The notes: generated by a model from the letters alone, not told the origin. DNA of 64,000 nucleotides from Alphaproteobacteria bacterium (GCA_965232515.1 CBDDPY010000002.1:5664001-5728000), one strand, 5' to 3'; shown: positions 9,654 through 27,339, counted from the stretch's first letter. Numbers and translations: made by a program.

Positions 9654-10706
9654 TTACGTCCTTGCATACCAAGTCCCTTTCCTCTTGCCATGCTGGGAAA
9701 GATGATTGGCACTCACCAGTGTTTGCAGGTGTTTCTTGACCGTGTTGCGGTTCGCGCCGGTGGCGGTGACGATCTGGCCGATCGTGATTTTTCCGTGCGC
9801 CCTCGCCAGTTCGAGGATTTCAAGCGACAGGTCCGGCAGGCTATCGACCATAATCCGCTCGCGCTCGATTTTCCGGGCCAACCGGTTTTTTTGCTCTTGC
9901 AAGGCGCGCAGGAAATACGCAACCCACGGCTCCCATTCGGGTCTATCGCTGCGGATGGTGCCTTGCGTCTGCCGTAGGGCGAGGTAGTACCCCTCCTTGG
10001 TCTGCTCGATCACGCTTTCCAGCGAGCTATAAGGCACATAGCCATAGCCGCAACGCAGCAGGAGCAGCGTTGTTAAAATGCGCGACAGCCTGCCGTTGCC
10101 GTCCTGAAACGGGTGGATTTCCAAAAAAACTACCGTAAACACAGCGATCACGAGCAGCGGGTGCAGGCGGCCTTCTGCCAGTGCGGTACGGGTCCAGTCC
10201 ACGAGCTCAGCCATAAGCCGGGGCGTATCGAACGGTGTGGCGGTTTCAAACACCACTCCAATCTCCTTTCCGACGTCATCAATAGCGGTGACATGATTGG
10301 TGGTGGTTTTGTATGCGCCGCGGTGTCGTTCGTCCTTGGCGCTGTGGATGAGCAGATCGCGGTGCAGTTGCAGGATATGGTTTTCGGTTATCTCGATTGC
10401 TTCGGCACTTGCGAAAACCGTTTCCATGACTTCCGCATACCCGGCCACTTCCTGTTCGTCGCGTGTCTCGAACGCCTTGATTTCGAGGTTAGATAAAAGC
10501 CGCTCAACTTCGCGGTCGGACAGCTTGCTTCCCTCGATCCGCGTGGAGGATCCGATACTTTCGATGGTGGCGACCCGGCGCAGCGCTGACAGCCGCTCAG
10601 GGGCCAGCGTGCCGAGGGCCTTCCATGCGCCCTTGAACTCGTCCAGCTCGGCAATGAGGGAGAGGATTTCAGGGGTGATCGTCAAGGTATCGGTGTTTAA
10701 GCTCAT
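9654..10706 (-). CDS. Fic family protein with a C-terminal HTH
   Basis: Fic motif HPFQDGNGRLSR; inhibitory-type motif SSTRIEG. Confidence 0.9.
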   Translation of the reverse strand: MSLNTDTLTITPEILSLIAELDEFKGAWKALGTLAPERLSALRRVATIESIGSSTRIEGSKLSDREVERLLSNLEIKAFETRDEQEVAGYAEVMETVFASAEAIEITENHILQLHRDLLIHSAKDERHRGAYKTTTNHVTAIDDVGKEIGVVFETATPFDTPRLMAELVDWTRTALAEGRLHPLLVIAVFTVVFLEIHPFQDGNGRLSRILTTLLLLRCGYGYVPYSSLESVIEQTKEGYYLALRQTQGTIRSDRPEWEPWVAYFLRALQEQKNRLARKIERERIMVDSLPDLSLEILELARAHGKITIGQIVTATGANRNTVKKHLQTLVSANHLSQHGKRKGTWYART

Positions 10707-10790
10707 ACCCAAAAATATACCCAAAAATATCCATAAATTCAAGATTCGGGGCCTGATACCCGAAAATACACCCATAAATATCCAAAAACT
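10705..10790. repeat. Two arrays of three 11-12-bp direct repeats (ATACCCAAAAAT-like) upstream of fic
   Basis: ATACCCAAAAAT x2 + ATCCATAAATT (10705-10739); ATACCCGAAAAT, ACACCCATAAAT, ATCCAAAAACT (10756-10790). Confidence 0.75.
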
Positions 10791-11143
10791 GTGGATGCCT
10801 CCCCCGCTAATCGCGGGGGCCGTGCTCTATTCCGCTAAGCTCGTTCCTCGCCAAGCTCCACGGAGCCATCGAAGATGTCTCCGCCCATACGGGTAACGAT
10901 CACTGGCGCAAGACAGTGGACAGCTTCGCGAGGGTGTTCTCGTTTCCGCGCTCAAAAGTAGCGCTCCCGCGGGACCACCGGGAACCCCGCTCAAGCTGAT
11001 CGCCGCTTCCCGCCACATTCTGTAGCTCCTTGCAGGCTATCTCGTTTTTGAAGAGCCGTTTCAAACCCTTCCAAAGCAACATTGGGGTAGTGAGCAAGCG
11101 CCACGGGCGGTGATTATTCGGCCCGGTTTATTGTCGGCCTGGA

Positions 11144-11182
11144 ATGAAAACGGCCTCGGGGCGGGGCGAAGGCCGTTTTCAT
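11144..11182. terminator. Hairpin downstream of the relaxase, probable terminator
   Basis: 13-bp inverted repeat ATGAAAACGGCCT / AGGCCGTTTTCAT. Confidence 0.5.
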
Positions 11183-11253
11183 CCCATTCCGAAGCAACAA
11201 ACCTCACACCATGAATGTGGTGGAAAGGTTTTCAAGTCGCTAATCAAACGCTT

Positions 11254-12555
11254 CTATTGCTCAAACTCGAACTTTGTACAGAGGCTGATTGCTCTTTCTC
11301 TTTCCTCATTCACTTTCCGCACGCTTTCATTGCTTGCGCTTGGATCAGACCCCATTGCAGCGTATTCCGAGAGCTGCGCATAGAGGTTATCCAGTTGAGA
11401 GCCGTAGTTCGCTTTGGCCGATTCAAGACGTTGTTGCAGTTTTTGTCGGTGTAGGCGTTGCCGATCTTCAAGCGCCTGTTGCTCCTGTCCGTCCCGTTGT
11501 AGACAGCGCTGTGCGGCAAAATCATTTTCTTTGGCAATCAGAGCATGTTTGCCTGTAATGCGGTGCCATAAACCTCTTAGGCCCTCTGAAAACCGAGCCG
11601 CACGTTCGGCCGCTTCCGCTTGCCAGCGCTCATCCTGTTGCGCTTTGAGAGTTTCGCGCTCCTGCCGATGACGCTGCGTCATTTCTGCTCGCTGCGATTC
11701 AAAAGCGCGCAAATCTTCTTTTGCGGCCTGTGTGACTTCCGCAACATATTTCTCAAGCTTTGGCGTCATGCGTTTGGCTGCCTTCGCCTGGACAGCTTCA
11801 ACACTTGGCAAATCTTGAGGTTCGCCAAGACGCTGCGCCAGTTCGTTGGATTTGACCCCCGACCAGCGGGAGAGCGAGTAAATGTTGCCTTCGTAATCGA
11901 CGCAGACAAATCCCCGCCTATCGCCTTGCGCCAAGAACAGCCCTGATCGCTCCAGCGCTGCCTCAAAGGATTGGCGATTGTCGCTGCAATTCCAGCTTGC
12001 CTTGACATGCTGCTTAAGATGTTTCGGCTGACGTTTGCCGCGTTTGGCCTCCTGATATTCTTCATAAGTGTAGTTCATGGGATCGGACTCCTGACCTTCA
12101 ATAAATCCGGCTGGAATTTCCCACCCGTGTTGAATGAAGAGGTCCAGCGCCAGGCCGTTCAGCTTGCGCTTGGGGTAATCCAGCTTGATAGCCTTCATGG
12201 TTTCGAGACTTATGCGTGACCACACAGCATGAGCATGGGTACGGCCTTCTTTGGTGTGCAGAACAATCGCTCGGCTTTGCCCGTTCAGCCCAAGGGTCAT
12301 TTCCGCCCGGTTAACCGCATCTATGAAATCCTGCCGAGAAACGTCGGCATCGGCGGGCGGGTTGAGACTGAGCGAGTAAAGATACTTCTTGCACTTCGTC
12401 GAGCGGCTAATTGCCTGTACCTCTAGAAATGCATCCATAAGCGTATCGGCGGCAAACCCGCGCATCTCGAGGATTTCGATATGCTCGTTTTCATCCTTCA
12501 TTAGATGAAGGGCGGACTCTGCAGCATTGCCCCTGATGTTGCCGACAAGGTTCAT
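11254..12555 (-). CDS. Relaxase/mobilization nuclease (MOBP/VirD2-like)
   Basis: LYSLSLNPP; HTKEGRTHAHAVWSRI (HUH motif); C-terminal coiled coil; lies directly after mobC. Confidence 0.85.
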   Translation of the reverse strand: MNLVGNIRGNAAESALHLMKDENEHIEILEMRGFAADTLMDAFLEVQAISRSTKCKKYLYSLSLNPPADADVSRQDFIDAVNRAEMTLGLNGQSRAIVLHTKEGRTHAHAVWSRISLETMKAIKLDYPKRKLNGLALDLFIQHGWEIPAGFIEGQESDPMNYTYEEYQEAKRGKRQPKHLKQHVKASWNCSDNRQSFEAALERSGLFLAQGDRRGFVCVDYEGNIYSLSRWSGVKSNELAQRLGEPQDLPSVEAVQAKAAKRMTPKLEKYVAEVTQAAKEDLRAFESQRAEMTQRHRQERETLKAQQDERWQAEAAERAARFSEGLRGLWHRITGKHALIAKENDFAAQRCLQRDGQEQQALEDRQRLHRQKLQQRLESAKANYGSQLDNLYAQLSEYAAMGSDPSASNESVRKVNEERERAISLCTKFEFEQ

Positions 12556-12559
12556 GACG

Positions 12560-12982
12560 CTATCGGCGCAAACCAAGCGCCCGAACAAGCATCAAACGCA
12601 TTTCGCTTACGTGCTCACAGGCTTGCATGAGTTCCCGGCATACTTCTGGCGTCACAGGCAAAGCGCCGGAGTTTGCGGCCTTGGCGAGTTGATTGAGGTT
12701 GCTTGAAAGGCGGGATTGCCCGAGCATCCCCAACGCCTTTGCGAGCGATTTCGCATCGGCCACCGGGCGGGCGTTTCTTGATCGCAATGATCCATCGTCT
12801 TCAAAAAGGAGGCTACGGACATGCACGCCGAGCGGCTTGCCTTTGGCGTCCTCTTGGAGCCGTTTACGCTGCTGGTTCGTTAGGCGAATCGAGAACGGGT
12901 AGGTCTGTTTCCTCTTTTGTGCGGGGCTGGGCGCGCACGCATGCGCCCACACCCCGGCGAGGCCGGGTGTGTCCTTCGGCAT
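12560..12982 (-). CDS. mobC: MobC relaxosome accessory protein
   Basis: PFSIRLT RHH strand and LG...SNLNQLAKAAN motif; start uncertain. Confidence 0.8.
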   Translation of the reverse strand: MPKDTPGLAGVWAHACAPSPAQKRKQTYPFSIRLTNQQRKRLQEDAKGKPLGVHVRSLLFEDDGSLRSRNARPVADAKSLAKALGMLGQSRLSSNLNQLAKAANSGALPVTPEVCRELMQACEHVSEMRLMLVRALGLRR

Positions 12983-14459: not shown

Positions 14460-14667
14460 GGCCTCTTTATGCCCCATGCTTGCGTGATGCCGGGCGATCG
14501 CGGGCGCGTCGCCATGTCTCGTCCCGCCCCGTTGTCCCCTGCGTCGTGCAGGGCGCCGCGGCGCGAACCGGCTCAGCGGTAAGGAAAGCAGCAACCGTTC
14601 GTCAGGTTAGCAAGGCCGGTTCGACCGCGTCCAGCGGCGCCGCACCGCCGTCGGCCGGCGGCAGACG

Positions 14668-15801
14668 CTATTCCCGCGTAGCGCCGGGAGGCGGCCTTCG
14701 GCCGAGCAGGCCGGCGGCGATCCCGACGGACATTTGCAGGTGGCGGCCGAGGTCCGGCTTCACCAGCATGCCGGCGGCAAGCCAGAAGAGATAGCGGATC
14801 GTACTGCCGGGGTAGAGGCGGAAGAACCAGAGGCGATTCTGCGCGCTATGCGCGGGCGCGGCGAGCAGACGCAGGGCGTGGGGGGCGTCGTCGACCCTGA
14901 TCAGGTCCCGATGCTTGTCGATCGCGTGCGCGAGGCGGCGACAGCGGTCGCGACAGGCGAAGACCAGCAACAGGATCGCCAGCATGTTGACCGAGACGGC
15001 CAGCAGGTTTTCGCGGCGGCGCGCCTCGAAAAAGGCCGGCCAGTCGATGTCGTCTTCCAGGCAGGTGACGACCGTATGGAGGTCGGCCAGGCTCTTGGCC
15101 CGGACCTTTCCGAGCTCGATGTCGGCGATCAACGACACGATCAGCAGCAGCAGGGAATCCTCGTCCGACAGTACGGCGTAACTGTCGCCGGAAATCGGAA
15201 ACCGTCGCGTCGCCGCCCAGATCCGCGTCAGATCGATGTCGTAGGCCGGGCGCGTGCGGAAACACCAATGCAGGTCGACGGCGACGTCCGCTCGCCGCAA
15301 GCCGATCGCGTGCACGAACCGGCTCGTCAGCATCGCGGGCAGGCGCGGACGACCGTCGTCGTCATAGCCCAATGCCCGCATCGCCGCCCGCAGACGCGGC
15401 AGATCCTCGGGCCGGACCAGAATGTCGAGATCGCGCAGCCGCCGCGCGCCGATATCGCCATAGAAATGCAGGGCGAAGTGGAAGCCCTTGAGCAGGATGA
15501 TATCGATGTCGTGGGTCGCCGCCGTTCGGTGCAGCTCATGCAGTGCGTCGCCCAGCATCCCGGACCGGTCCCGGTCGTTGGCGGCGAAGCCGAGCAGCGC
15601 CATGACCAGCCAGGCGGGCAGGCGGTCCGATGCCTGGCTTCGCTCAATCCGCCAACGCAGATACGCGCCGAGATCGTGGGTCGCGAGGAAGCTGAGAAAC
15701 GCTTCGGACTGGAAGTCCGGCGCCGTGAGCGCGGTCGCGACCGCGTCCCAGTCGCCGCGCGCCGCCGCCGCGATGATCGGAAAATGCGCTTGCCAGGTCA
15801 T
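14668..15801 (-). CDS. Nucleotidyltransferase (NTP_transf_5 family)
   Basis: ILLKG.....FY.....R...DLDILV and VDLHW signatures. Confidence 0.85.
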   Translation of the reverse strand: MTWQAHFPIIAAAARGDWDAVATALTAPDFQSEAFLSFLATHDLGAYLRWRIERSQASDRLPAWLVMALLGFAANDRDRSGMLGDALHELHRTAATHDIDIILLKGFHFALHFYGDIGARRLRDLDILVRPEDLPRLRAAMRALGYDDDGRPRLPAMLTSRFVHAIGLRRADVAVDLHWCFRTRPAYDIDLTRIWAATRRFPISGDSYAVLSDEDSLLLLIVSLIADIELGKVRAKSLADLHTVVTCLEDDIDWPAFFEARRRENLLAVSVNMLAILLLVFACRDRCRRLAHAIDKHRDLIRVDDAPHALRLLAAPAHSAQNRLWFFRLYPGSTIRYLFWLAAGMLVKPDLGRHLQMSVGIAAGLLGRRPPPGATRE

Positions 15802-15831
15802 GGGATCGCCGCGCGCCGCGGTTTCGGCGGG

Positions 15832-16932
15832 CTAGGTCGGGCTCGCGTTTGACGCGGCCTCGGCCAGGATGCGTTTTGCCCGGATCTCCAGGTCGTCCGG
15901 ATCGGCCGCCTCCGCCTGCCGCAGCCATGGAAGTGCGCGCCCGGGCTCGCCCTGGCGCAGCCAGCAAACGCCCATCAGACCCCAGGCCAGCGCGCCGAAC
16001 AGGCGGCGGTCGTAGCCCAGCTCGCTTCGCGCCGGCCCGTCGGGTCCGAACGCCAGCAGCCGGTCGAGGCAGGCCCGCGCCGCGGAAAACCGCCCGGCCG
16101 CCTCATGATGGCGCGCGGTCCACCATAGCACCGACGGGTCGTCGCCGTGGCGGGCGGCGGCTTCGTCCAGCAGCACCGCGGCGTCGGCGAGCGCGACGTC
16201 GGCATCTGATGTGTGCAGGTCCAGCAGATCGGCGTAGATCAGGGCATCGCCGGGCCGGGGATCGCGGCGTCGCAGCACGGCCAGGCCCTGCCGCCAGGCG
16301 CGCTCGGCCGCGGCCGCGTCGCCCAGGCCCCGCTCGGCTTCGCCGAGCGCGTGCCAGAGATAGATCCGCGCCGGATCGGCCTCGACGGCGCGGCGCAGCA
16401 GTGGGTGGTTGCGCCGGTGCTTGGCGTCCAGATTGCCCTCGTAGCCAAGGTGCTCGATGGCCATCGGCGCATCGGTGATCACCGCGTCTTCGGCGGCTGT
16501 GATCCGCTGCAGGTCCGGTACCACGGTTTCGTGGATGACGCCGCGAAACCGGATGTCCGGCCGATTGCGGAACAGGCGGTGCTCGCGATAGGGCGTCAGG
16601 CGGCTGTTGGCGCGAAAGCGGACGCGCGCGGCGACCGCCGATCCATCCCGCAGCACCGGATCGAGCCGGCCATTCAGCGAGACCCGTTCATCGGCGTCGA
16701 TGTAGAGAATCCAATCGCCCGTCGCATGGGCGAGCGCGGTGTTGCGGGCGCGCGAAAAATCATCGCGCCAGGGTTCGCGCACCAGGCGCGCGCCGTGCGC
16801 AACCGCGATGTCGGGTGTACGGTCCCGCGACCCGGTATCGACCACCACGACCTCATCGGCCACGGCGGCGATACTGTCCAGGCAGGGGCCCAGATGTTCT
16901 TCCTCATCGCGGACGATAAGGGCCGCGCTCAG
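15832..16932 (-). CDS. GT2 glycosyltransferase with C-terminal TPR repeats (SunS-like architecture); start uncertain
   Basis: The frame extends upstream of the track ORF as LSAALIVRDEEEHL...DTGSRD...DDFSRARN...YIDADE...IHE, followed by helical repeats. Confidence 0.8.
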   Translation of the reverse strand: MSAALIVRDEEEHLGPCLDSIAAVADEVVVVDTGSRDRTPDIAVAHGARLVREPWRDDFSRARNTALAHATGDWILYIDADERVSLNGRLDPVLRDGSAVAARVRFRANSRLTPYREHRLFRNRPDIRFRGVIHETVVPDLQRITAAEDAVITDAPMAIEHLGYEGNLDAKHRRNHPLLRRAVEADPARIYLWHALGEAERGLGDAAAAERAWRQGLAVLRRRDPRPGDALIYADLLDLHTSDADVALADAAVLLDEAAARHGDDPSVLWWTARHHEAAGRFSAARACLDRLLAFGPDGPARSELGYDRRLFGALAWGLMGVCWLRQGEPGRALPWLRQAEAADPDDLEIRAKRILAEAASNASPT

Positions 16933-16976
16933 CCGTCCGTTTTGGCCGGCCGCGGCGGTGTCACGGTGTTGCGGGC

Positions 16977-17144
16977 TTACGACTGGTTGGAAGCCTGCGC
17001 CGCCGCCGGACGTGACATCAGTCCGGACATGGTGAACGTGGCAACGGCCGGCGCCACGAATCCGGCCTTTGCGACTTTCCGCATGAACTCGCGGCGAGCC
17101 GGTGACACGCGTGAAATCACGTCTTCCCGTTTTACATCAGACAT
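16977..17144 (-). CDS. 55-aa putative RiPP-like precursor peptide with a twin-arginine motif (absent from the ORF track)
   Basis: Hand translation: MSDVKREDVISRVSPARREFMRKVAKAGFVAPAVATFTMSGLMSRPAAAQASNQS*. RBS AAAGGGGG; lies between the kinase and GT2 genes. Confidence 0.8.
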   Translation of the reverse strand: MSDVKREDVISRVSPARREFMRKVAKAGFVAPAVATFTMSGLMSRPAAAQASNQS

Positions 17145-17188
17145 AGGACATGCCCCCTTTACGAGCGGTCAGACAATACAGAAGGCTA

Positions 17189-17217
17189 ATATTACGAGTT
17201 TTCGGCAGATTGCTCAA
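17189..17217 (-). promoter_or_regulatory. Putative sigma70 promoter for the peptide gene
   Basis: TTGAGC-N17-TAATAT on the minus strand, about 45 bp before the ATG. Confidence 0.5.
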
Positions 17218-17218
17218 G

Positions 17219-18040
17219 TCAGCCGGCGAACGCGGCCTCCAGTTGCGGCACGGCGTCGGCCACGTCGCCCAACACCAGTTCGTAGCCGCCGGCCGCGCCG
17301 AGCCGGCTTGCCGATGCGACCAGCACGTCCCCCGCTTCGCCCCAGCCCAGCCAGCTTTCCAGCAGGCGCTGAATGATCTGGAAGGGCGGACAGTGCGTCA
17401 GGCTGGTGGCGCCGCCATGATTGGGCGATATCGAGATCACGGCATCGACCGGACCGAGATCGATGCGCCAGTCGAACCCCTGGACGCCGGGATCGAGGGC
17501 GGAGATGTCGACCTCGCCCATCGACTTGCGCGGCAGGCTGTCGAGCGGCCGCCGCAGTTCCGGCACGTGGCGCTCGGCACCCGGTTTCAGGTGAAAGTTG
17601 CGCGGAAACGCCATGGTCCGGCCATCCCGCTCGAGCACGAACTCGTCGCCGTCGACGCGATGGCCGGCATACAGCAGGCGCGTCGCGAGCGTCGTCTTGC
17701 CCGCGCCCTTGTCGCCCAGAAACAGCAATCGGCGGCCGTTGACGGTCGCGAGCCCGCCGTGCAGCAGGGTCCAGCCGGCGAGGACATAGCGCTCCATGGT
17801 GCGGCGGTGAACGCGGCCGTAGACCACATGCAGCACGTCCTGTGCGGTCGCGACGTCGGCCAGCGGGTCGCCTTCCTCGAAGATCTCGTAAGGACCGATG
17901 CCCCGCACCTCGTAGCGCAGCGTCTTGCGTACGGATACCGGTTGGCGGGCCTTGGTGGCGAGATAGCGGAACGTGTCGGCGAGATCAGGATCCCGGTGCC
18001 CGATCTCGACGCGGCAGCTTAGGATCTGGAACGAGATCAA
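17219..18040 (-). CDS. HprK-related P-loop kinase (peptide kinase-like)
   Basis: LLHGG...LFLGDKGAGKTTL...VDGDEFV...AFPR. Confidence 0.8.
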   Translation of the reverse strand: MISFQILSCRVEIGHRDPDLADTFRYLATKARQPVSVRKTLRYEVRGIGPYEIFEEGDPLADVATAQDVLHVVYGRVHRRTMERYVLAGWTLLHGGLATVNGRRLLFLGDKGAGKTTLATRLLYAGHRVDGDEFVLERDGRTMAFPRNFHLKPGAERHVPELRRPLDSLPRKSMGEVDISALDPGVQGFDWRIDLGPVDAVISISPNHGGATSLTHCPPFQIIQRLLESWLGWGEAGDVLVASASRLGAAGGYELVLGDVADAVPQLEAAFAG

Positions 18041-18044
18041 CCCG

Positions 18045-18326
18045 CTACGCGGCCGAAGTAACGACCAGCACGCCTTCTTCCACGAGCTGCTTCAGCCCGG
18101 TCTCGACGTCGTCCAACGGCGGCGCGTCGAGCGAATGCAGATCGGCCATCGCCGCCGCCAGCTCGGCGGCGCTCGACGCACCGTCACAGAGCTCGAACAG
18201 CGCGCCGGCGGAGAAGTTAAGATGGTGCACGCGGTCGTTCGCCGGATTGAAGACGACGAGCCCATCCTGGGTCTCGTGCACCTCCAGGTCGGCGGCGCGG
18301 GTGTATTTCGGCGCGTCGGCGGACAT
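18045..18326 (-). CDS. PqqD-family protein / RiPP recognition element
   Basis: 93 aa with the pattern DGLVVFNP...VHHLN.SA..LFELCDG......LA...DV...L.QL.EEGVL. Confidence 0.9.
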   Translation of the reverse strand: MSADAPKYTRAADLEVHETQDGLVVFNPANDRVHHLNFSAGALFELCDGASSAAELAAAMADLHSLDAPPLDDVETGLKQLVEEGVLVVTSAA

Positions 18327-18351
18327 GGGCGGTTTACTAGCACAGGAATCG

Positions 18352-19605
18352 CTAATTTGCATCCGGCCCGGCCGCCAGGTCGGCGATGGCGGCGGCGACC
18401 GTTTCGGCGTCGTGGTGGTCCGCGACAAAGCGGGCGGCGTTGGCCGACAGCCGGCCGGCAAGGCTGGCGTCCGTCAGGATCCGCCCAGCGGCGTCCACCA
18501 GGGCCGCGTCGTCGTCCGCGATCAACAACTGATCGCCGTCGCGGATACCGAGACCGGCGGCGGCGGCCGGCGTTGCCGCCACCGGCAGGCCGTGCGCGAA
18601 GGCCTCGAGGATCTTCAAACGGCTGCCGCCACCGGCGCGCAGCGGCACCAGGGCCAGATCGGCGCGCCGGTAAAACGGCGTCAGATCGGGGATGAAGCCA
18701 TGGACCTGGACCCCGGCATGCCCGGCCAGCCGCGTCGCGCCTGCCCCGGCGCCGATGATGTGCAGTTCCGCGCCCCGACAACGGCGGCGCAGGGCGGGCA
18801 GGATGGCGGTGGCGAGGCGCTCGGCCGCATCCAGATTGGGCAGATAGTCAAGGTTGCCAATGAACAGCACGGATGGCGCTCCGTCACCGGGCCGCTGTTC
18901 TTCTGCGCCGATTGCCGTCCCGACAGCATTGGGCACCGTCGTCACAGCGGCCAGGCCGTGACGCCGGCGCAGGGCATCCGACTCCAGATCGCTGGCGGTC
19001 GCCACATGATCGAACCAGCCGAGCGTGTGCTTGGCCAACCTGGCATAGGCATCGGCTTCCGCGGTCGTGCGCGCCGCGGCATCGGCCTCGCCGCGTTGCC
19101 GATGCAGGTCGGCGATGGCGGTCAGGGTTGCTGCGTCATCCTCATCCAGGTCGAGGATCAGGCGGGCGCCGCACCCACGGTACGGCAACACGGTGCCGGC
19201 GATGTAGAGTCGCATGACCCAGACCAGATCGAAGGTCTCGCCGGCGAGTTCGCGGGAGACGGCATCGGGGCAGGCAAGCCGGGCGCGGTTGGGCAGCGGC
19301 TGTGTCGCCGCGACGACGGCGCGGCCGCTCGGGTCGGCGAGCCAGCGGCGCGCGGCGTCCGTCGGCGCCGGCAGCGGCACGAAGAACGCGCGCGCCGAAT
19401 GCTCGGCGGCCCAGCCCATGGACGCCGCATCGGCGCCCGGATCGGAAACGGGCAGCACGGCCGTGGTGAGGTTGTATGCCCGCGACAGGCCCTGTAGCGT
19501 AACGGCGGCCCGCATGGCGAGACCGTTCCCGGTCGGCGCCGGGGCGATGGGGCAGATCAGGAGCGCGCGCGGCCGCGACGACGGCGAACAGTCACGCTGA
19601 ACCAT
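18352..19605 (-). CDS. GT4 glycosyltransferase
   Basis: FIGNLDYLPN, VPLRAGGGSRLKILEAFAHGLPV. Confidence 0.85.
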   Translation of the reverse strand: MVQRDCSPSSRPRALLICPIAPAPTGNGLAMRAAVTLQGLSRAYNLTTAVLPVSDPGADAASMGWAAEHSARAFFVPLPAPTDAARRWLADPSGRAVVAATQPLPNRARLACPDAVSRELAGETFDLVWVMRLYIAGTVLPYRGCGARLILDLDEDDAATLTAIADLHRQRGEADAAARTTAEADAYARLAKHTLGWFDHVATASDLESDALRRRHGLAAVTTVPNAVGTAIGAEEQRPGDGAPSVLFIGNLDYLPNLDAAERLATAILPALRRRCRGAELHIIGAGAGATRLAGHAGVQVHGFIPDLTPFYRRADLALVPLRAGGGSRLKILEAFAHGLPVAATPAAAAGLGIRDGDQLLIADDDAALVDAAGRILTDASLAGRLSANAARFVADHHDAETVAAAIADLAAGPDAN

Positions 19606-20455
19606 GAGTCGAATACCCCGGATCGCCCATTTCGTTTTCGGCCTGCGCGAGCAGCTCGAGCCGTTCCACCTGCTGCATTATCTGGCCATCGAGACCTGCC
19701 GGCGCATCCTAAAGCCCGAGGCCATCTACCTCCACTACCACCATCTGCCGTTCGGCGTCTTCTGGGACGAGATTCGTCCGCATCTGACGCTCCGCCGTGT
19801 CGGCCTGGCGGACGAGGTGTTGAACGCCGACTACGACGAACGGCTGGTGCCCAAGGCGTACCGTTACGCCCACCACGCCGATTTCGTGCGGCTGGAAGCG
19901 CTGGTCGAGTACGGCGGCGTCTATGCCGACATCGATACTGTCTTCGTGCGGCCGCTGCCGGACGCGCTCTATGACGAGAAGTTCGTGATCGGGCGCGAGT
20001 CCGATGTGCCGGACGAACTTACCGGCGCGGTGCGCCCGTCATTGTGCAACGCGCTGCTGATGGCCGAACCGGGCTCGGTCTTTGCCCGTACCTGGCTCGA
20101 CCGCATGGGAGCGGCGATTAACGGCACCTGGAGCAATCACTCGGGCTTCCTGGCCGAGGCCTTGAGCGAAGAGATGCCCGACGAGGTTCGGGTCGAGCCC
20201 GAGGAGTCGTTCTTCGCCGTCCCGTGCACGCCGGAAGGTCTGGAGTCGCTGCTGGGCGAGGGGCCGGTGGACCTGACGCGCAGCTATTCGTTGCATCTTT
20301 GGGCGCATGTCTGGTGGAGCTTCGACCGCCGGGACTTCACCGCGCGGCATGCCGGCGAGATGACCCTGTCGCGGTTGCGGCGGTCGGCCTCGCCGCTGGC
20401 CGAGCTCGTCCGTCCCTATCTGCCCGATATCGATCTCGACGACGTGCGAACCTGA
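19604..20455 (+). CDS. GT32-like DXD glycosyltransferase
   Basis: IPRIAHFVFG, HADFVRLEAL.EYGGVYADID. Confidence 0.8.
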   Translation: MSRIPRIAHFVFGLREQLEPFHLLHYLAIETCRRILKPEAIYLHYHHLPFGVFWDEIRPHLTLRRVGLADEVLNADYDERLVPKAYRYAHHADFVRLEALVEYGGVYADIDTVFVRPLPDALYDEKFVIGRESDVPDELTGAVRPSLCNALLMAEPGSVFARTWLDRMGAAINGTWSNHSGFLAEALSEEMPDEVRVEPEESFFAVPCTPEGLESLLGEGPVDLTRSYSLHLWAHVWWSFDRRDFTARHAGEMTLSRLRRSASPLAELVRPYLPDIDLDDVRT

Positions 20456-20458: not shown

Positions 20459-21655
20459 ATGCCGCAACCGCACGGTCTGAACGTGGTGACGCTGACGCCC
20501 GGCTGCGGCTACGGCGATGCCGGCAGTCAGTATGTCGCGGGGCTGCACACGCTCGGTGTGCCGGTGACCTGGACGCCGACGGTCGCGAACACGGCGGACA
20601 TTCTGCCGTTCGACGATTGCCGCCGCGATCTGCCGAACCCGATCGCCGCCGATCTTACCGCGCTGTGGCGGCGGCCGCTCGATTGCGACGCGATCCTGGT
20701 CAACATCCCGCCGTTCCGTTGGCAGCGCTATTGGCGCCGGGCGGCGCCGGACCTGCGGCCGTTCACCTATATCACCTGGGAGGTCGAGCGTGTGCCCGAT
20801 GACTGGCCGCCGGCGCTCAACCTCTATGACCGCGTCTTCGTGCCGTCGATCTTCAACCGGCAGGCGCTCGTCGCCGGCGGCGTGACGACGGCGGTCGATG
20901 TGGTGCCGCACGTCGCGCGGGACGCGGTCCCGGTTCACGGTGGCCCGCCTTGGGGCAACGTGGCCGACGAGGATTTCGTCTTCTACACGATGGGCATGTG
21001 GACCGCGCGCAAGGCGATGGAGGAGACAATCCGCGCGTACCTGGAGGCGTTCGGCCGCGACGACCCCGTCGCGTTGATCGTCAAGACCGAGGCCATCGAT
21101 CAGATGGCGTACTACGCATTGCCGGCCGACTGGCGCGACAGCGCGCCATCCCAGGTGGCGATGGTCTGGTGGCGCGTGGCGCAGATCCTTGCCGAGTATC
21201 CCGATGCGGCGAAGGTGCATCTGGTCGCGGAACCGGTGTCGCCGCACGAGGTCGATCGTCTGCACACGCGGGGCGACTGTTTCGTGAGTCTGGCGCGGAG
21301 CGAGGGCTGGGGTCTGGGGCCGTTCGACGCGGCGCTGTTCGGCAATCCGGTCATCGTCACCGGCTGGGGCGGACAGCTCGATTATCTCGGTGCCAACGAT
21401 CCACTGTTGGTCCGCTATGAACTGGAGCCGACCTCGGCCTCGGCGCCGGACGGCTATTATCTTCGCGCCGATGACGTCCGCTGGGCGCGCGCCGACCGGC
21501 AACATGCCGGTGCGCTTATGCGCGAGGTGTTCGAGACCAGGGACCGGGCCGGCGCCGCCGCGCGCGAGCGTCAGTTCGAGCTTTGCCGGCGCTACTCGGC
21601 CGACCGCGTCTGCCGGCGCCTTGCCGACCTCATGGGTTACGAGGTCGCCGGATGA
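20459..21655 (+). CDS. GT4 glycosyltransferase (paralog 1)
   Basis: GYG, WE, VPS, RK, RSEGWGL..FDA...GNPVIVTGWGG. Confidence 0.85.
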   Translation: MPQPHGLNVVTLTPGCGYGDAGSQYVAGLHTLGVPVTWTPTVANTADILPFDDCRRDLPNPIAADLTALWRRPLDCDAILVNIPPFRWQRYWRRAAPDLRPFTYITWEVERVPDDWPPALNLYDRVFVPSIFNRQALVAGGVTTAVDVVPHVARDAVPVHGGPPWGNVADEDFVFYTMGMWTARKAMEETIRAYLEAFGRDDPVALIVKTEAIDQMAYYALPADWRDSAPSQVAMVWWRVAQILAEYPDAAKVHLVAEPVSPHEVDRLHTRGDCFVSLARSEGWGLGPFDAALFGNPVIVTGWGGQLDYLGANDPLLVRYELEPTSASAPDGYYLRADDVRWARADRQHAGALMREVFETRDRAGAAARERQFELCRRYSADRVCRRLADLMGYEVAG

Positions 21656-22305
21656 CCGCCGCCACGCAGCCGTTGTTGGCGCCGCGCATCGCCGCCTTCA
21701 TCTCGATCCCGAGAAACGCCAGCCACACGGTCCGAGAGGTCCTTGAGCTGGGCCCCAACCGGGACTTCGAGACCACCGCCTCGCCGGTGATCCACGAGAA
21801 CCATCAGCGAGGCGCGGTGCTTGCCGCGCGCTACGATCTCGAGCCGCTGTTCGTCTTCTGCTTTGTCCGCCATCCCTATCTGCGTTGCCTCTCCTGGTTC
21901 CGCTTTCACCGTGACGTGGAGCCCTATCGACGGTTCAGCTTCGAGCAATGGGTGGCGGCCGGCATGCCGCATCATTGGGGGCGGCAGAACCAGACCGACT
22001 ATGCGGCGAGCGGCGCGACGCCACTGCTGCAGACGACATTCGTTGCCGGTTGCCGGGTTGACTTCGTCGGCCGGTTCGAGACGTTCGACCGGGATCTGCG
22101 GCACGTCGTGGCGGCACTCAACAGCCGTGCCGAAGCCGCCGGGCTTGCGGCGCGATATCGGTATCGGCAGGTTCGCCTCAACAGCACGGTTCCGTGGCCA
22201 CCGCCCGAACGGCTGCTGACGGCGCCGGTGCGTAAAACAATTCAACATTTGCTGGCGGCGGACTTCGAACGCTTCGGCTTCCCTGTCGATACGGTGGTCG
22301 GATGA
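21652..22305 (+). CDS. Sulfotransferase family 2 protein
   Basis: PAPS-binding-like motifs FISIPRNAS and FCFVRHPY.RCLS; DFVGRFE; DFERFG. Confidence 0.7.
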   Translation: MTAATQPLLAPRIAAFISIPRNASHTVREVLELGPNRDFETTASPVIHENHQRGAVLAARYDLEPLFVFCFVRHPYLRCLSWFRFHRDVEPYRRFSFEQWVAAGMPHHWGRQNQTDYAASGATPLLQTTFVAGCRVDFVGRFETFDRDLRHVVAALNSRAEAAGLAARYRYRQVRLNSTVPWPPPERLLTAPVRKTIQHLLAADFERFGFPVDTVVG

Positions 22306-23510
22306 CGGCGACGGGCCGGCCGCCGCGCGGCCTCAAGGTCGTGACACTGACTCCGGGCGGCGGCTATGGCGATGCCGGCTGCCAATATGTCGCGGGCTTG
22401 CATGCGCTCGGGCTTCCCGTTACCTGGACGCCGACCATCCTCGACGCCACCGAACGGCAGGCCGCTGCCCGCAACAAACGCAACCTGCAGAGCGCGATCG
22501 GGCAGGATCTGCTGGCGCTCTGGGATCGGCCGCTCGACTGCGATGCGATCCTGGTGCATATGCCGCCTGTTCAATGGCACGATCATTGGCGGCAGGCGGC
22601 GCCGGATCTGCGGCCTTTCACCTGTATCGCCTGGGAGGTCGCACAGATCCCCGACGACTGGCTTCCGGCGTTGAACCTCTATGAGCGGATTTTCGTGCCG
22701 TCGACGTTCACACGACAGGCGCTTGCCGCAACGGACATCGAGGCGGCAATCGACGTCGTGCCGCACATTGCGCGCGATGTGACGCCGCAATCCGGCGGCG
22801 CGCCCTGGGGCGAGGTGGCCGACGACGATTTCGTCTTCTACGCCATCGGCAGCTGGACCACGCGCAAGGCGATGGAAGAAACGGTCCGCGCCTACCTCGA
22901 CGCCTTCACCGGCGACGACAAGGTCGCGCTGATCGTCAAGACCGGGCCGGTCGACAAGATCGCGCTCTACGCCCTGCCGGACGTACAGCGGCAGAGCGCC
23001 CCACCGCATCATGCGATGGTCTGGTGGCGGCTGGCGCAGATCCTTGCCGACTATGACAATCCGGCCAAGGTGCATCTGATCGCGGAACGGCTGCCCGCCC
23101 GCGAGATCGACCGGCTGCACACGCGCGGCGACTGTTTCGTCAGCCTGTCGCGCAGCGAGGGCTGGGGGCTGGGGTCGTTCGACGCCGTTCTGTTCGGCAA
23201 CCCGGTCATCGTGACGGGCTGGGGCGGGCACCTGGACTATCTGGGCGCGGACTATCCCCTGTTGGTCGGTCATGTTCTGGAAGCGACGTCAAGGGCCGCA
23301 TCGGACGGCTTTTTCAAGGCGGTGCTGGATGCCTGTTGGGCACGCGCCGACCGGGATCATGCCAGCGAGCTCATGCGCCGGGTTTTCGAGGATCGGGCCT
23401 CCGCGCGCGCGATCGCCCGCGAATTGCAGCCGCAGCTTCGGACCCGCTACAGCGCGGACAGGGTTTGCCGGCGTCTCGCCGCGCTGATGGGATTCGAGGT
23501 CGGCGCATGA
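22302..23510 (+). CDS. GT4 glycosyltransferase (paralog 2)
   Basis: Same motifs as 20459-21655 and collinear with it. Confidence 0.85.
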   Translation: MTATGRPPRGLKVVTLTPGGGYGDAGCQYVAGLHALGLPVTWTPTILDATERQAAARNKRNLQSAIGQDLLALWDRPLDCDAILVHMPPVQWHDHWRQAAPDLRPFTCIAWEVAQIPDDWLPALNLYERIFVPSTFTRQALAATDIEAAIDVVPHIARDVTPQSGGAPWGEVADDDFVFYAIGSWTTRKAMEETVRAYLDAFTGDDKVALIVKTGPVDKIALYALPDVQRQSAPPHHAMVWWRLAQILADYDNPAKVHLIAERLPAREIDRLHTRGDCFVSLSRSEGWGLGSFDAVLFGNPVIVTGWGGHLDYLGADYPLLVGHVLEATSRAASDGFFKAVLDACWARADRDHASELMRRVFEDRASARAIARELQPQLRTRYSADRVCRRLAALMGFEVGA

Positions 23511-24505
23511 CGGACAGTCCGATGCCGGCCATTCCCCAGGACCTTAAGTCGACGCGGCTGCTGGTGCTGGCCTGGACCGATCATTTCTTCGGCGCGGACT
23601 ATCTCGATGCGAAGCGTATCGCGAACCCGAACGGGCCCGACATCGAGCTCAGCTTCACCTCCGACCGCGACCGGCTGGACGAGGTCGACGCCGTCTGGTT
23701 CCACGGCCCGTCAATCACCGACCTGCCGCCGCGCAAGCGGCAGCCCTGGGTGCTGATGAGCATGGAGAGCGACGTCAACTATCCGGCCCTGAAGAATCCG
23801 CTGGTGCTGCCTCGGTTCGATCTCTTGATGACCTATCGGCTCGATGCCGACGTGCCGTGCATCTACCCGAACTGGCGGCACTACGGCACGTTTCTCGACG
23901 CCCCGCCGCGACGACGGGGACCGGCCGCGGGCGCGCTGGCCTGCTACATCGCGTCGAACCCGGTCGCGCACCGCGACGACTATGCCGCGGAATTGATGCG
24001 GCACGTGCCGGTCGACAGCCTCGGGTCCTGCCTGCGCAACGCCCGCATCGACGGCTTCGTCGACGGCGGCTGGGCCGACGGCGCCTGGGTCAGCCTGATG
24101 TCGGTGCTGCCGCGCTACAAGTTCTATCTGGCGTTCGAGAACTCGCTCACCACGGACTACGTTACCGAGCGGGTGTTTCACGCGCTGGCCAGCGGGGTGG
24201 TGCCGGTCTACCGCGGTGCCGGCAACGTGCGCGATTTCATGCCCGCCGATGACACCATTATCGACACGGCCGACTTCGCTTCTCCGCGCGAGCTGGCGGA
24301 CTATCTGCGCTACCTGGACCAGGACGATGACGCCTATGCCAAGCATCTGCGCTGGAAGCAGGACGGCTATTCCGACCGGTTCAAGGCTCTGGTCGATCTG
24401 GGCTCGGTCGATCCGCAACACCGAATGGCGGTGAAGCTGGCGCATGGCTGCGATCGTGACTGCCTTTGTGGCGGCCGGATGCGGGCGCCCGGTGTGCTGC
24501 CGTGA
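23507..24505 (+). CDS. GT10 alpha-1,3-fucosyltransferase-like protein
   Basis: SMES, MTYRLDADV, YKFYLAFENS...DYVTER...AL..G.VPV. Confidence 0.85.
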   Translation: MTDSPMPAIPQDLKSTRLLVLAWTDHFFGADYLDAKRIANPNGPDIELSFTSDRDRLDEVDAVWFHGPSITDLPPRKRQPWVLMSMESDVNYPALKNPLVLPRFDLLMTYRLDADVPCIYPNWRHYGTFLDAPPRRRGPAAGALACYIASNPVAHRDDYAAELMRHVPVDSLGSCLRNARIDGFVDGGWADGAWVSLMSVLPRYKFYLAFENSLTTDYVTERVFHALASGVVPVYRGAGNVRDFMPADDTIIDTADFASPRELADYLRYLDQDDDAYAKHLRWKQDGYSDRFKALVDLGSVDPQHRMAVKLAHGCDRDCLCGGRMRAPGVLP

Positions 24506-25284
24506 CGACGGTCCTGGTCAACTATGCGACGGACGACTTCGCGGACTACCAGGCGATCAACAGCCTGACCGGCCGGCTGTTCGGTTTCGACGATTGCCGC
24601 AGCTACGGACCGGACGATCTCGCCCCCGACTTCGCGCGCCGGAACGCCGCAACGCTTGCCGCCGGGCGCGGCGCCGGCTATTGGCTCTGGAAGCCTTACA
24701 TCGTGGCGCGGACGTTGGCGGAACTCGCCGACGGCGATCTGCTGTTCTATGCCGACGCCGCCATGCACTTCGTCAATCCGGTTGCGCCGTTGGTCGATCT
24801 GCTGGACCGGCACGCTCTGGACCTGTTGATCCTGGGCGAGAGCTTCGCAGAGGCGCAGTACACCAAGCGTGACGCCTTTGTCCTGATGCGGGCCGACACG
24901 CCCCAATTTGTCGGCACGCCGCAGCGTTTCGCCAGCTGCTTCATGCTGCGCAAGACGGCCTGGGCCGATGATTTCGCCGCGCGCTACCTCGCCTTCGCCG
25001 AAGACGATCGTATCCTGACCGACCGGGCGAATACCTGCGGCCTGCCCGACTACTCCGACTTCATCGCCCACCGGCATGACCAGTCTATCTTCAGTCTGCT
25101 GAGCAAGCAGGCCGACGTGCCGGTCGTCGCCGCCGACATGATCGCCGGGGGCTTGCCGGATCGCGCGACGCAGATCATCAACCACACCCGCGCGCATCTC
25201 GCGCCAAAGGACATCGTCAAACGCCTGCTGGTGCAGGGCGTGCTGTCGGTCAGCGATCTGGCGGAACTGGCGGCGCCGGCATGA
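24502..25284 (+). CDS. Putative glycosyltransferase-like protein (WKP...HRHDQS; DUF1647-like)
   Basis: RGAGYWLWKPYIV, LFYADA, HRHDQSIFSLL; GTG overlaps the upstream stop. Confidence 0.6.
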   Translation: MTTVLVNYATDDFADYQAINSLTGRLFGFDDCRSYGPDDLAPDFARRNAATLAAGRGAGYWLWKPYIVARTLAELADGDLLFYADAAMHFVNPVAPLVDLLDRHALDLLILGESFAEAQYTKRDAFVLMRADTPQFVGTPQRFASCFMLRKTAWADDFAARYLAFAEDDRILTDRANTCGLPDYSDFIAHRHDQSIFSLLSKQADVPVVAADMIAGGLPDRATQIINHTRAHLAPKDIVKRLLVQGVLSVSDLAELAAPA

Positions 25285-26227
25285 CGTCCGCCAGGGCCGC
25301 GCGCTTGACGCAGACCCAGGGCGTGATGCCGGGCTTGATCCAGTGGCTGTCAGCCGTGCAGCGCTCGAGCCTGCCGCCGCGCCCCTTGATGTAGCCGTTG
25401 TAGTTGAAAGCGATGGCCTCAGGGTTGCGTGTCGCGGCATCCGCGATGGCGGCATGGTCGCCTGGCGCGTATTCCACGTAATCGATGTCGAAGCCGAAGA
25501 TGTCGTGGTTCTCGAACACGGCGTAGCCGTCGATGGGCGCGGGCGGTGGCGGATGCTGAATGTTCCAGATGTTGGTGTGGTGGTGGATGAAATAGAGCAG
25601 GCGCTCCGACCGGATCGCATCGATGGACTTTCCGCCAAGCGCCGGCAGTTGCCCGAGCACATTCCGGCCGCAGACCTTGTCGAGACCGATGATATTGAAC
25701 CGGAAGATGTTCTCGAACAGTCGCACCTGTTTGGTCAGCATATCCGGGCCGGTATTGTTGAAGACATCGGCGAAGGTGACGTCGCGCTCGATCAGGTGCG
25801 ACAGCCGCTTCGTGACATAGCCGAAAAAGGCATGGCCCGGCGGCGCCGCCATCAGGGCGTTGGCGATGATCGTGTCGTCGATGGTCGGCGCGGCCAGCAG
25901 CGACAGATGCACGTCGCCCTCGGCGAGCAGCGGATCGATCGGCTTCAGGCACTCCATGTCGAGGTCGATATAGACGCCGCCATAGTGCAGCAGCATGAAG
26001 TAGCGGACGGCGTCGACCCGCTCGATGTTGTGCTTGTAGCCGTCATAGGTCGGCAGGAACCAGGGATAGTGCTCGGCGATCAGCCGACGGTTGTCCGCGT
26101 CGGTCCAGAGCCAGTGTTGCCAGTCCGGATGGTGCGTCCGCACGGTCGCGCGATGGCGCGCGTAGTCGTCCGGCAGCGTCTCGGTCTTCCAGGTCTGGTG
26201 AATGATCCGGGGGATCGTCTGTTGCAT
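25250..26227 (-). CDS. GT32 (Och1/Sur1-like) glycosyltransferase
   Basis: IPRIIHQTWKT, DAVRYF.L..YGGVYIDLD, TGP. Confidence 0.85.
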   Translation of the reverse strand: MQQTIPRIIHQTWKTETLPDDYARHRATVRTHHPDWQHWLWTDADNRRLIAEHYPWFLPTYDGYKHNIERVDAVRYFMLLHYGGVYIDLDMECLKPIDPLLAEGDVHLSLLAAPTIDDTIIANALMAAPPGHAFFGYVTKRLSHLIERDVTFADVFNNTGPDMLTKQVRLFENIFRFNIIGLDKVCGRNVLGQLPALGGKSIDAIRSERLLYFIHHHTNIWNIQHPPPPAPIDGYAVFENHDIFGFDIDYVEYAPGDHAAIADAATRNPEAIAFNYNGYIKGRGGRLERCTADSHWIKPGITPWVCVKRAALADVMPAPPVPPDR

Positions 26228-26358
26228 GCCGTCGATCTCGTGCGGCGGTCGGCATTGACCGTCGTTCCGGGCATGTCATACCGTCGGCGCGCGCCGCCGT
26301 TCAAGGAGAGTTGACGGCGAGCGATAACGCTGTTCGCGTGTGCGTGGCAGGAGTGGGG

Positions 26359-27339
26359 ATGCGGGAAGGCAAGATCGTCGTCTGCGGTGCGGGCGGCTTT
26401 ATCGGCGGACACTTGGTGAACGATCTGATCCGCCGGGGCTGCACGGACCTCCGGGCGGTCGATGTGAAGCCATTCGACGGCTGGTTTCAGGTCTCGGATG
26501 CGGCTGAAAACATCAGACTCGATCTGCGGCGGCGCGAGGCCTGCCTCGCGGCTCTGGCGGACGCGCGGGTCGTCTACAACCTGGCCGCCGATATGGGCGG
26601 CATTGGCTTCATCGAGTTCAATCGCGCCCAATGCATGCTGAACGTGCTGATCAACAGCCATCTGCTGGAGGCGGCGCAGGAGCTGGGCGTCGCGCGCTAT
26701 TTCTTCACCTCGTCCGCTTGCGCCTACAACGTCGAACTGCAGCGCGATCCCGATGTGACGGCCCTGAAGGAAGCGGATGCTTATCCGGCCATGCCGGAGG
26801 ACGGTTACGGCTGGGAAAAGCTGTTCAGCGAACGCATGTGTCGGCACTTCACGGAAGATTTCGGCCTGCCCACCCGCGTCGCCCGGCTTCACAACATCTA
26901 TGGTCCCTACGGCACTTTTGACGGCGGTCGGGAGAAGGCGCCGGCGGCGATCTGCCGCAAGGTCGCCGAAGCAAAACTGTCGGGGCGGCACGAGATCGAA
27001 ATCTGGGGCACGGGCGAGCAGACCCGCAGCTTCACGAACATCGACGACTGCCTCCACGGCATGCACCTGATCATGGAATGCGATGTGGCCGAGCCGCTGA
27101 ACCTCGGCAGCAACGAGTGTGTCAGCATCAACCAACTGGTCGACATGGTCGAAGACATCGCCGGCGTCCGGCTGGCGCGGCGTTACGATCCGACCGCGCC
27201 GGCCGGCGTCAACGGCCGCAACAGCGACAACAGCCGCATCCAGGCGGTGCTTGGCTGGCAGCCGAGCACGCCGCTTGCCGCTGGCCTGGAGGCGACTTAC
27301 CGCTGGATCTACGACCAGATGGCAGGCAGTTCGGCGTAG
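26359..27339 (+). CDS. GDP-mannose 3,5-epimerase-like NAD-dependent epimerase
   Basis: GAGGFIG, NLAADMGG.GFI, SSACAY, YGWEKL, GGREKAPAAICRK, GRNSDN. Confidence 0.85.
   Translation: MREGKIVVCGAGGFIGGHLVNDLIRRGCTDLRAVDVKPFDGWFQVSDAAENIRLDLRRREACLAALADARVVYNLAADMGGIGFIEFNRAQCMLNVLINSHLLEAAQELGVARYFFTSSACAYNVELQRDPDVTALKEADAYPAMPEDGYGWEKLFSERMCRHFTEDFGLPTRVARLHNIYGPYGTFDGGREKAPAAICRKVAEAKLSGRHEIEIWGTGEQTRSFTNIDDCLHGMHLIMECDVAEPLNLGSNECVSINQLVDMVEDIAGVRLARRYDPTAPAGVNGRNSDNSRIQAVLGWQPSTPLAAGLEATYRWIYDQMAGSSA

Follow-up and report, generated by a model that had tools for sequence, protein, structure and literature searches.

A window of 64,000 nucleotides from the genome of an Alphaproteobacteria bacterium (GCA_965232515.1 CBDDPY010000002.1:5664001-5728000; 'the window' below is this whole stretch, counted from its first letter) carries on its minus strand the gene for a 55-residue peptide, P0001. 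The gene lies between those for an HprK-like kinase and a glycosyltransferase, and a gene for a PqqD-type peptide chaperone stands two genes upstream. P0001 is a short gene beside a PqqD-like RiPP recognition element (RRE; RiPPs are ribosomally synthesised and post-translationally modified peptides) and tailoring enzymes, conserved with them as a unit, and its product is probably a substrate of these neighbours. The best reading of its leader, judged from sequence, is a Tat-like (twin-arginine translocation) export signal. This report considers the peptide family, the gene cassette around it, and the joint function that both suggest.

The peptide gene and its family

The preliminary description of this DNA had proposed a hidden precursor, almost all of it a Tat-like signal peptide, with a ribosome-binding site and a promoter of its own. 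The open reading frame (ORF) translates exactly into the 55 residues given there, the ribosome-binding site would be the Shine-Dalgarno-like GGGGG entered in Table 1, and the whole Tat-like layout can be located: an RRxF motif (RREF, with the arginines at residues 17-18), a weakly hydrophobic stretch, an AxA site and the tail QASNQS. The uncharged stretch has 18 residues (A27-S44); averaged over 15 residues its hydropathy peaks at 1.52, and over 19 residues it stays below 1.6 throughout. Putative cleavage after A47-A48-A49, directly before Q50, would leave the tail QASNQS, and an alternative site, A49-Q50-A51, would leave SNQS.

P0001 is a real, conserved gene under purifying selection. About 45 small relatives are known from the searches, and wherever the source gives a name they are called 'hypothetical protein'. 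A word-indexed search of 5.8 billion proteins with P0001 returned nine relatives of 54-62 residues with 60-70% local identity. An exhaustive phmmer search over 1.84 billion representatives (E 0.001 or better) returned 28 proteins; 25 were kept as true relatives, and three long tandem-repeat proteins (P0011, P0031 and P0036) were dropped. Pattern scans located 11 loci, five in species genomes (a Pseudomonadota bacterium, two Acidobacteriota, a Halieaceae bacterium and a gammaproteobacterium) and six in metagenome contigs, the metagenome scan being run with alignment A1 and not with the broader A2, which is too diverse. The small ORF is intact, with start and stop, in all 11. The Halieaceae locus, L019, has two tandem copies (L019:4258-4428 and 4578-4745), which brings the peptide genes to 12.

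Differences between close copies are largely silent. The L019 copies differ by five amino-acid changes and seven synonymous codons over 46 codons; the pair L020/L026 by eight synonymous and no replacement differences over 46 codons; and the pair L021/L024 by five synonymous and three replacement differences. In a strain represented in an RNA library and about 97.5% identical to the window, both differences within the ORF (17013 and 17064) fall at third codon positions. A window of 64% GC does contain many spurious overlapping ORFs, but the notion that P0001 is a chance ORF in GC-rich DNA is already contradicted by a start, stop and ribosome-binding site that stay intact across phyla and by the synonymous excess, and has practically no probability left.

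The family is rare. Neither 40 relatives searched with P0001 nor 400 genomes sampled from the phylum and searched with alignment A1 gave a true homologue beyond the window's own genome. Longer or fused forms of P0001 were not seen at E 0.01 or better among 128 word-index candidates, which is weak evidence. Three database matches place the same leader before something larger: P0038 (98 residues) continues into a PEP-CTERM sorting tail that scores over its cut-off, P0037 (164 residues) into a DUF11 repeat domain, and P0032 (245 residues) into a 190-residue domain of unknown family.

Motifs were counted in 46 unique sequences, 12 from the loci and 35 from databases with one duplicate. The arginine pair and the AxA-like site, on whose conservation the preliminary description had staked its reading, are kept in 46/46 and 45/46 respectively, the latter 28-37 residues past RR. 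Phenylalanine stands at +2 after RR in 42/46, and a hydrophobic residue at +3 and K/R at +4 or +5 are universal (46/46 each); the version in P0001 is A-R-R-E-F-M-R-K. A Pro-centred motif is likewise found in every sequence, in the form [FY]xxPx[VILA] in 41. TFTM-GLM and PAAAQ do not vary within the closer subfamily. The c-region before AxA is basic or contains Pro.

The tail past the AxA-like site is short, at most 25 residues in 41/46, and has a conserved motif of its own, which the preliminary description had missed. N-x-S/T occurs within the first nine tail residues of 35 sequences, whereas 2000 shuffles within the tails averaged 10 such sequences and never exceeded 21; it is present in all 12 locus peptides, and the tails that bear it are 4-20 residues long. 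An Asn is found somewhere in the tail in 42/46, and 15, P0001 among them, end in Ser.

The conserved cassette and related loci

The kinase, nucleotidyltransferase and glycosyltransferase context (Table 1) had also escaped the preliminary description. Gene order was compared by tblastn and ORF reading over the 11 loci. The kinase lies directly upstream of the peptide gene in 11/11 loci, and PqqD upstream of the kinase in 9/9 that extend that far; GT4 and the divergent DXD glycosyltransferase are present in 8/8; downstream, a GT2-TPR protein with the same N-terminus follows in 9/9 and NTP_transf_5 comes next in five of seven. In six loci the flanks outside the cassette are unrelated housekeeping genes. 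Judged by this synteny, the cassette is a self-contained, horizontally mobile unit of eight or nine genes that passes between phyla.

Table 1. Positions of the peptide gene, its parts and the surrounding genes in the window
Feature	Position	Strand	Remarks
P0001, 55-residue putative precursor	16977..17144	minus	Stop TAA
P0001 start codon ATG	17144-17142	minus	Counted on the sequence
P0001 leader	residues 1-49		n-region, RREFMRK (17-23), weakly hydrophobic stretch, SRPAAA
Weakly hydrophobic stretch of leader			Contains F29-x-x-P32-x-V34 and TFTMSGLM
P0001 tail	Q50-S55		QASNQS, including N53-Q54-S55
Shine-Dalgarno-like GGGGG	17157..17153	minus	8 nt 5' of the P0001 ATG
Promoter-like element TTGAGC-17-TAATAT	17189..17217	minus	-35 at 17217-17212, -10 at 17194-17189
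GT4-type glycosyltransferase	18352..19605	minus	First gene of the minus-strand operon
PqqD-family peptide chaperone (RRE)	18045..18326	minus	93 residues; ATG at 18326
HprK-like P-loop kinase	17219..18040	minus	GDKGAGKT; far under the HprK_rel_A cut-off
GT2 + TPR protein/peptide glycosyltransferase	15832..16932	minus	Closest solved relatives GmaR and SunS
NTP_transf_5 nucleotidyltransferase-like protein	14668..15801	minus	
DXD Gly_transf_sug glycosyltransferase	19604-20455	plus	Divergent; conserved with the cassette
GT1/GT4-like glycosyltransferase	20459-21655	plus	Divergent; conserved with the cassette
Window-specific additions	21583..27339		Sulfotransferase, second GT1-like gene, GT10 fucosyltransferase, 272-residue protein of unknown family
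Further window-specific additions	within 21583..27339		Second Gly_transf_sug gene (minus); NAD-dependent sugar epimerase/dehydratase

By Pfam and NCBIfam matches, no protease, transporter, flippase or lasso cyclase is seen in the window's cluster, and no protease or exporter is conserved in the cassette over the 11 loci or in the flanks of six related loci; the earlier statement that none is encoded nearby holds to this extent. Hydrophobic segments of 19 residues are absent from the cluster's proteins, a patch in NTP_transf_5 excepted. Among solved structures, GmaR (E 6e-21) and the SunS-type S-glycosyltransferases (E 1e-13) come nearest to the GT2-TPR protein; the likeness extends over its first 170-190 residues and mainly concerns the catalytic domain. 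Enzymes of these two types attach sugars to peptides and proteins.

Just outside the cluster, 7511-12588 encodes a HerA-like ATPase, a Fic protein and a MobA/VirD2-type relaxase; these genes fail the filter of GC content at third codon positions (>0.75) that the cluster genes pass, and the region may be a mobile-element boundary. On the other side, a V/A-type ATPase set (A and B subunits, subunit D and subunit I) adjoins the cluster at 27345-34834 on the minus strand.

The promoter claimed for P0001 is weak by consensus, but its position is widely kept. TTGAGC begins right past the kinase stop codon (TGA, 17221-17219), and 44 nt separate TAATAT from the ATG. Together, the two hexamers agree with the sigma-70 consensus in 8/12 positions; a scan of 14500-20000 with a mark of 9/12 called no promoter-like site at all and missed this element because it falls under that mark. 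When the best -35/-10 pair was sought from 110 to 16 nt upstream of the start in 12 loci, 11 had a like element, with TTGnnn (TTTnnn in one), a spacer of 16-18 nt, a score of 8-10/12, a -10 hexamer of the form nAnnnT, and 27-46 nt between the -10 end and the start codon. L025 has none under the rule used. Random windows of the same loci attain the observed score in 0.5-15.5% of cases, and the loci are not all independent, L021/L024 and L020/L026 being near-duplicates. The gaps between kinase and peptide genes measure 30-121 nt in the 12 loci and are clearly AT-richer than their own locus except in L018 and L023; in the related loci, a purine-rich run is read shortly 5' of the start codon. A dedicated promoter for the peptide gene thus has comparative support, which falls short of proof.

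A terminator scan of 14500-20000 returned two terminator-like sites, both inside genes and within shuffle expectation, and a hairpin between the peptide and GT2 genes is no better than shuffles (z -1.5). The sole transcript evidence is a contig from the RNA library of the 97.5%-identical strain, which spans 16452-18820 with a depth as flat as that of its neighbours. Over window positions 14600-19700, about 2.5% of positions differ in this strain, which also lacks three bases at 15353 and nine at 18712, lengths that would keep the reading frame.

The same genome contains two more loci of interest. Among seven weak matches to P0001 elsewhere in the genome, six are not N-terminal signals and are put down to chance; the seventh led to a 60-residue peptide, P0039, on the minus strand at G000:C2:4149224-4149406 (L034:8225-8407). 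It has the motifs DRRKFLKK, ATAPAV and AAAG, and passes the Tat model TIGR01409 with 20.5 bits against a cut-off of 16.7. The upstream genes on its strand encode a GMC oxidoreductase and a protein of 405 residues in which PqqD is fused to an HprK_rel_A-like kinase; a second NTP_transf_5 gene is oriented towards P0039. The third locus is a bona fide HPr-rel-A pair (G000:C2:6232588-6233427, L077:8550-9819; 365 bits with TIGR04352 and 55.6 bits with TIGR04353), followed by a gene for a 357-residue protein without family match and then lgt. The detector described next saw no RR-leader peptide within 1.5 kb of it.

PqqD-HprK fusions in other genomes have similar peptides nearby. A loose detector, fixed beforehand, picked small ORFs in which RR-x-hydrophobic-hydrophobic precedes a run of 13 or more uncharged hydrophobic residues. 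It gave 141 matches in the whole 7.39 Mb genome, and around 12 fusions in other genomes 14 matches in 156 kb, against about three expected at the rate of the window's genome (Poisson P about 3e-6, with the qualification that the genomes differ in composition and that two loci, L072 and L074, are of the same genus and not independent). A stricter motif, chosen post hoc, gave six matches in five of the 12 loci against 0.1 expected, and five genome-wide, of which only P0001 and P0039 are convincing; weight should be put on the loose detector only. Seven fusion loci have a peptide of the layout RRxFLxK ... P-x-V, mostly directly upstream of the fusion.

Functions proposed for leader and tail

The Tat reading of the leader draws on several lines of evidence. 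P0001 has the S/T-R-R-x-F-L-K-type motif, followed by an uncharged stretch and then AxA. At the signal-bearing end, the family's NCBIfam matches are to Tat-type models only, and weak: TIGR02811 is matched by 8/33 members and TIGR01409 by 6/33, one of which, P0030, exceeds the cut-off (17.6 against 16.7 bits). The nearest named protein-atlas clusters are Tat-signal N-termini, which serves as a lead only, and TatC is encoded elsewhere in the genome. The leaders of P0038 and P0037 must be export signals because of what they precede, a PEP-CTERM tail and a DUF11 surface repeat.

One further model touches the leader. TIGR04117 ('Cys-Xaa-Xaa-Xaa repeat radical SAM target protein') is weakly matched by 12/33 members in its N-terminal and central region (profile positions 12-65 of 98), a hint that the leader of another predicted RiPP target family is similar.

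The pairing of leader and chaperone was modelled by co-folding the PqqD alignment with the peptide alignment. The ipSAE was 0.58, against 0.02 for the best of three controls, with at least 95% of contacts shared between runs and a partner pLDDT of at least 67. Of 80 solved complexes, 58 attain the mark used, and so do 2 of 110 mismatched pairs; scores of 0.60 or less account for only seven of the solved complexes that pass and for both passing mismatches. The score may come from the model's memory of solved chaperone-leader complexes and is not taken here as showing binding.

We give an even chance to a model in which P0001 is a RiPP-like precursor, with a leader that would serve both chaperone recognition and Tat export, and a tail that would be phosphorylated, glycosylated or both in the cytoplasm and freed by signal peptidase I. 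Binding, chemistry, modified residue, Tat dependence and cleavage are what we infer in this model. P0001 would be the precursor for a cassette of GT4, PqqD, HprK-like kinase, GT2-TPR, usually NTP_transf_5, and the divergent glycosyltransferase pair. For recognition, [FY]xxPx[VIL], the TFTMSGLM block and the n-region would be read by PqqD and the tailoring enzymes, with the chaperone holding the leader; for export, SRRxF(L/V)(R/K)K, the uncharged stretch, the c-region and AxA would form the twin-arginine signal. The part modified would be the tail, (Q)-x-N-x-S/T, while still in the cytoplasm. By analogy with lasso-peptide tailoring, the kinase would phosphorylate Ser/Thr (here the C-terminal Ser55); NTP_transf_5 and/or GT2-TPR would then add a sugar, other soluble glycosyltransferases would extend it, and in this genome the sulfotransferase and the fucosyltransferase may add further groups. 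Export of the bulky glycopeptide would fall to the general Tat translocase, with signal peptidase I cutting past the AxA site. Tat can carry small unstructured hydrophilic peptides. As a rule, RiPP pathways encode a protease and an exporter of their own, and the few with a general secretion signal use Sec; reliance on Tat and signal peptidase I would explain a cassette without protease, transporter, flippase or lipid-carrier priming enzyme.

A number of observations weigh against this model. P0001 itself stays under every Tat model threshold: its sole match is to TIGR02811 (E 0.02), and as for TAT_signal_seq TIGR01409 (cut-off 16.7 bits), P0001 does not match it at E 10 or better. Ordinary signal peptides show far less conservation in the hydrophobic stretch than this family does, and the tail of P0001 is only 4-6 residues long, so there is little cargo; the fusion-class peptides have almost nothing past the hydrophobic stretch. 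N-x-S/T is absent in 11/46 sequences, and only 15/46 end in Ser. The support from co-folding for the PqqD-leader pairing is weak. NTP_transf_5 was not found downstream in two of seven loci, both Acidobacteriota. The GT2-TPR gene of the window has no ATG, GTG or TTG at the homologous start, where homologues begin M-[RL]-L-S-A-C-L-I-V and the window reads G-R-L-S-A-A-L-I-V (16863-16935, minus). The first listed start, GTG 16863, would drop the first strand of the catalytic domain; CTG 16932-16930 is a possible start, and in the RNA-library strain changes upstream of it are mostly replacements, as for non-coding DNA. The RNA contig shows neither strand, start nor level, and may be DNA carry-over. 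Finally, 30 bona fide HprK_rel_A loci have no RR-leader peptide within 1.5 kb, by which the peptide link is supported for the window and fusion types and not for the curated family. The dual role that the preliminary description had assigned to the leader, RRE recognition plus Tat export, is thus partly supported: the motifs are conserved, PqqD is encoded nearby, the lack of a conserved protease or exporter fits the general Tat and signal peptidase machinery, and the co-fold lends weak support.

Part of this evidence suits a reading in which the RR leader is a recognition handle only, for PqqD, the kinase and the glycosyltransferases, with a convergent likeness to Tat signals; the modified peptide would then remain cytoplasmic, or exit by an unlinked route after the action of an unlinked protease. 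Both the hydrophobic stretch and the n-region are unusually conserved, P0001 scores below the Tat thresholds, and the peptides of the fusion class end right past the hydrophobic stretch with hardly any cargo; because they nearly lack a tail, the RR leader could be an enzyme-recognition element and not an export signal. We nevertheless consider this reading unlikely, since the match to SRRxFLK, uncharged stretch and AxA is complete and conserved, same-leader relatives carry PEP-CTERM or DUF11 surface domains that need export, and both P0030 and the second-locus peptide pass TIGR01409.

If the signal is a genuine one, its fate may differ. The very short tail, and a conserved hydrophobic stretch that could function in the membrane, would fit a Tat-inserted, uncleaved N-in, C-out anchor, presenting a glycan or phosphoglycan at the inner membrane's outer face; this is quite improbable, however, for a stretch so weakly hydrophobic by the hydropathy values given above and with an AxA-like site kept in 45/46. 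Small proteins consisting only of a Tat signal exist (the family named in the TIGR02811 match), and the proteins encoded beside P0001 are without signals of their own. P0001 might be a cargo-less signal and no enzyme substrate, acting as a hitch-hiking escort or regulator for another protein, or titrating the translocase or a chaperone. The conserved N-x-S/T tail, and the fixed place of the gene between kinase plus chaperone and a peptide glycosyltransferase, point instead to a substrate and leave this idea very little probability.

The precursor model can be extended to a peptide-primed glycan pathway, a possible but on the whole doubtful proposal. A phospho- or O-linked (possibly Asn-linked) oligosaccharide would be built by soluble cytoplasmic enzymes on the tail of the Tat-signal peptide, exported by Tat and released by signal peptidase I; the Tat translocase accepts bulky substrates and so would carry the tail-linked glycan. 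If true, this would be glycan export without a lipid carrier, flippase or dedicated transporter. The dual leader, if true, would make this the first RiPP-like system whose RRE-read leader doubles as a twin-arginine signal, would link RiPP leader recognition with the Tat proofreading by signal-peptide chaperones, and would provide a route out for a bulky, cytoplasmically glycosylated peptide without dedicated machinery. Together with the fusion-linked RR-leader peptides, it would represent one branch of a wider undescribed class. P0001-type peptides are a candidate substrate class for the widespread, unexplained gene sets of PqqD, HprK-like kinase and NTP_transf_5; the cassette is unannotated and moves between phyla.

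Comparison with known systems

The motif YxxPxL is found in lasso leaders, and a lasso core is some 15-25 residues long and closes its ring at an Asp/Glu in position 7-9. FVAPAV of P0001 had been likened to YxxPxL; the Pro-centred motif has proved conserved as counted above, but the system is not a lasso system. The tail QASNQS has six residues, none of them acidic. The shared parts are nonetheless considerable: in the available text of PMC8498205, the phosphorylated and phosphoglycosylated lasso peptides paeninodin and pseudomycoidin come with a PqqD-type chaperone, an HPr-kinase homologue and an NTP_transf_5-type nucleotidyltransferase. In lasso precursors the C-terminal Ser is the residue that HPr-kinase homologues phosphorylate, and for pseudomycoidin one or two hexoses are attached to this phosphate by the nucleotidyltransferase (PMC8498205); P0001 likewise ends in Ser. 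The window's cassette differs from those systems in its Tat-like leader, its tail of only 4-6 residues and its four or more extra glycosyltransferases, and in lacking a lasso cyclase, a B2 protease and an ABC exporter. Chaperone, kinase, nucleotidyltransferase and [FY]xxPx[VIL] are thus common to both, but neither the window cassette nor the conserved gene set of the 11 loci includes an asparagine-synthetase-like cyclase or a transglutaminase-like B2 protease, and a tail of 4-6 residues without Asp/Glu is too short for a ring. P0001 has next to no chance of being a lasso precursor.

Glycocins use double-glycine leaders and a peptidase-transporter, and the window's cassette has neither. The GT2 domain followed by TPR-like helices resembles both the sublancin enzyme SunS and the flagellin O-GlcNAc transferase GmaR, but the window protein scores 46.6 bits against a cut-off of 350 for the SunS equivalog TIGR04195. 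Glycocins are defined in an abstract as O- and/or S-glycosylated RiPPs. The HPr-rel-A system (TIGR04352 kinase A with TIGR04353 PqqD) has the same order of PqqD then HprK-like kinase; the window's kinase, however, reaches 22.8 bits where the cut-off is 200, and its PqqD 29.2 bits where it is 35. The literature searched contained no paper on HPr-rel-A, 'HprK-related kinase', TIGR04352 or TIGR04353, and none on a RiPP with a twin-arginine leader, or on such a precursor or cassette; supplements and subscription journals lay outside the search. The reference listed for PF14907 concerns phosphonates.

Two further systems show that single features of the model have precedents. In the available text of PMC3712460, Tat signal peptides double as binding sites for cytoplasmic maturation chaperones, as in NapA/NapD; the overlap of export and chaperone binding in one signal holds back export until maturation is done (PMC3712460, PMC3316669, each as available). 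The proposed leader of P0001 would resemble NapA/NapD and other redox-enzyme maturation proteins in this respect, but their cargo is a large cofactor enzyme and the chaperone is NapD/TorD-like, while here only a few residues would follow and the chaperone is PqqD-like. Bufferins, in the available text of PMC11626156, are RiPP precursors with a Sec signal and the general signal peptidase, an arrangement that their authors call rare, and for which bulky peptides would be poor substrates. The use of a general secretion signal and signal peptidase, with no dedicated exporter or protease, is what we propose here as well; unlike P0001, bufferins have a Sec signal, cores of 60-70 residues with Cys and an MNIO enzyme, and their signal peptide is dispensable for modification (PMC11626156). 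By model cut-offs, the system in the window is neither a lasso system nor the curated HPr-rel-A system nor a glycocin; it mixes parts of all three with a Tat-like leader.

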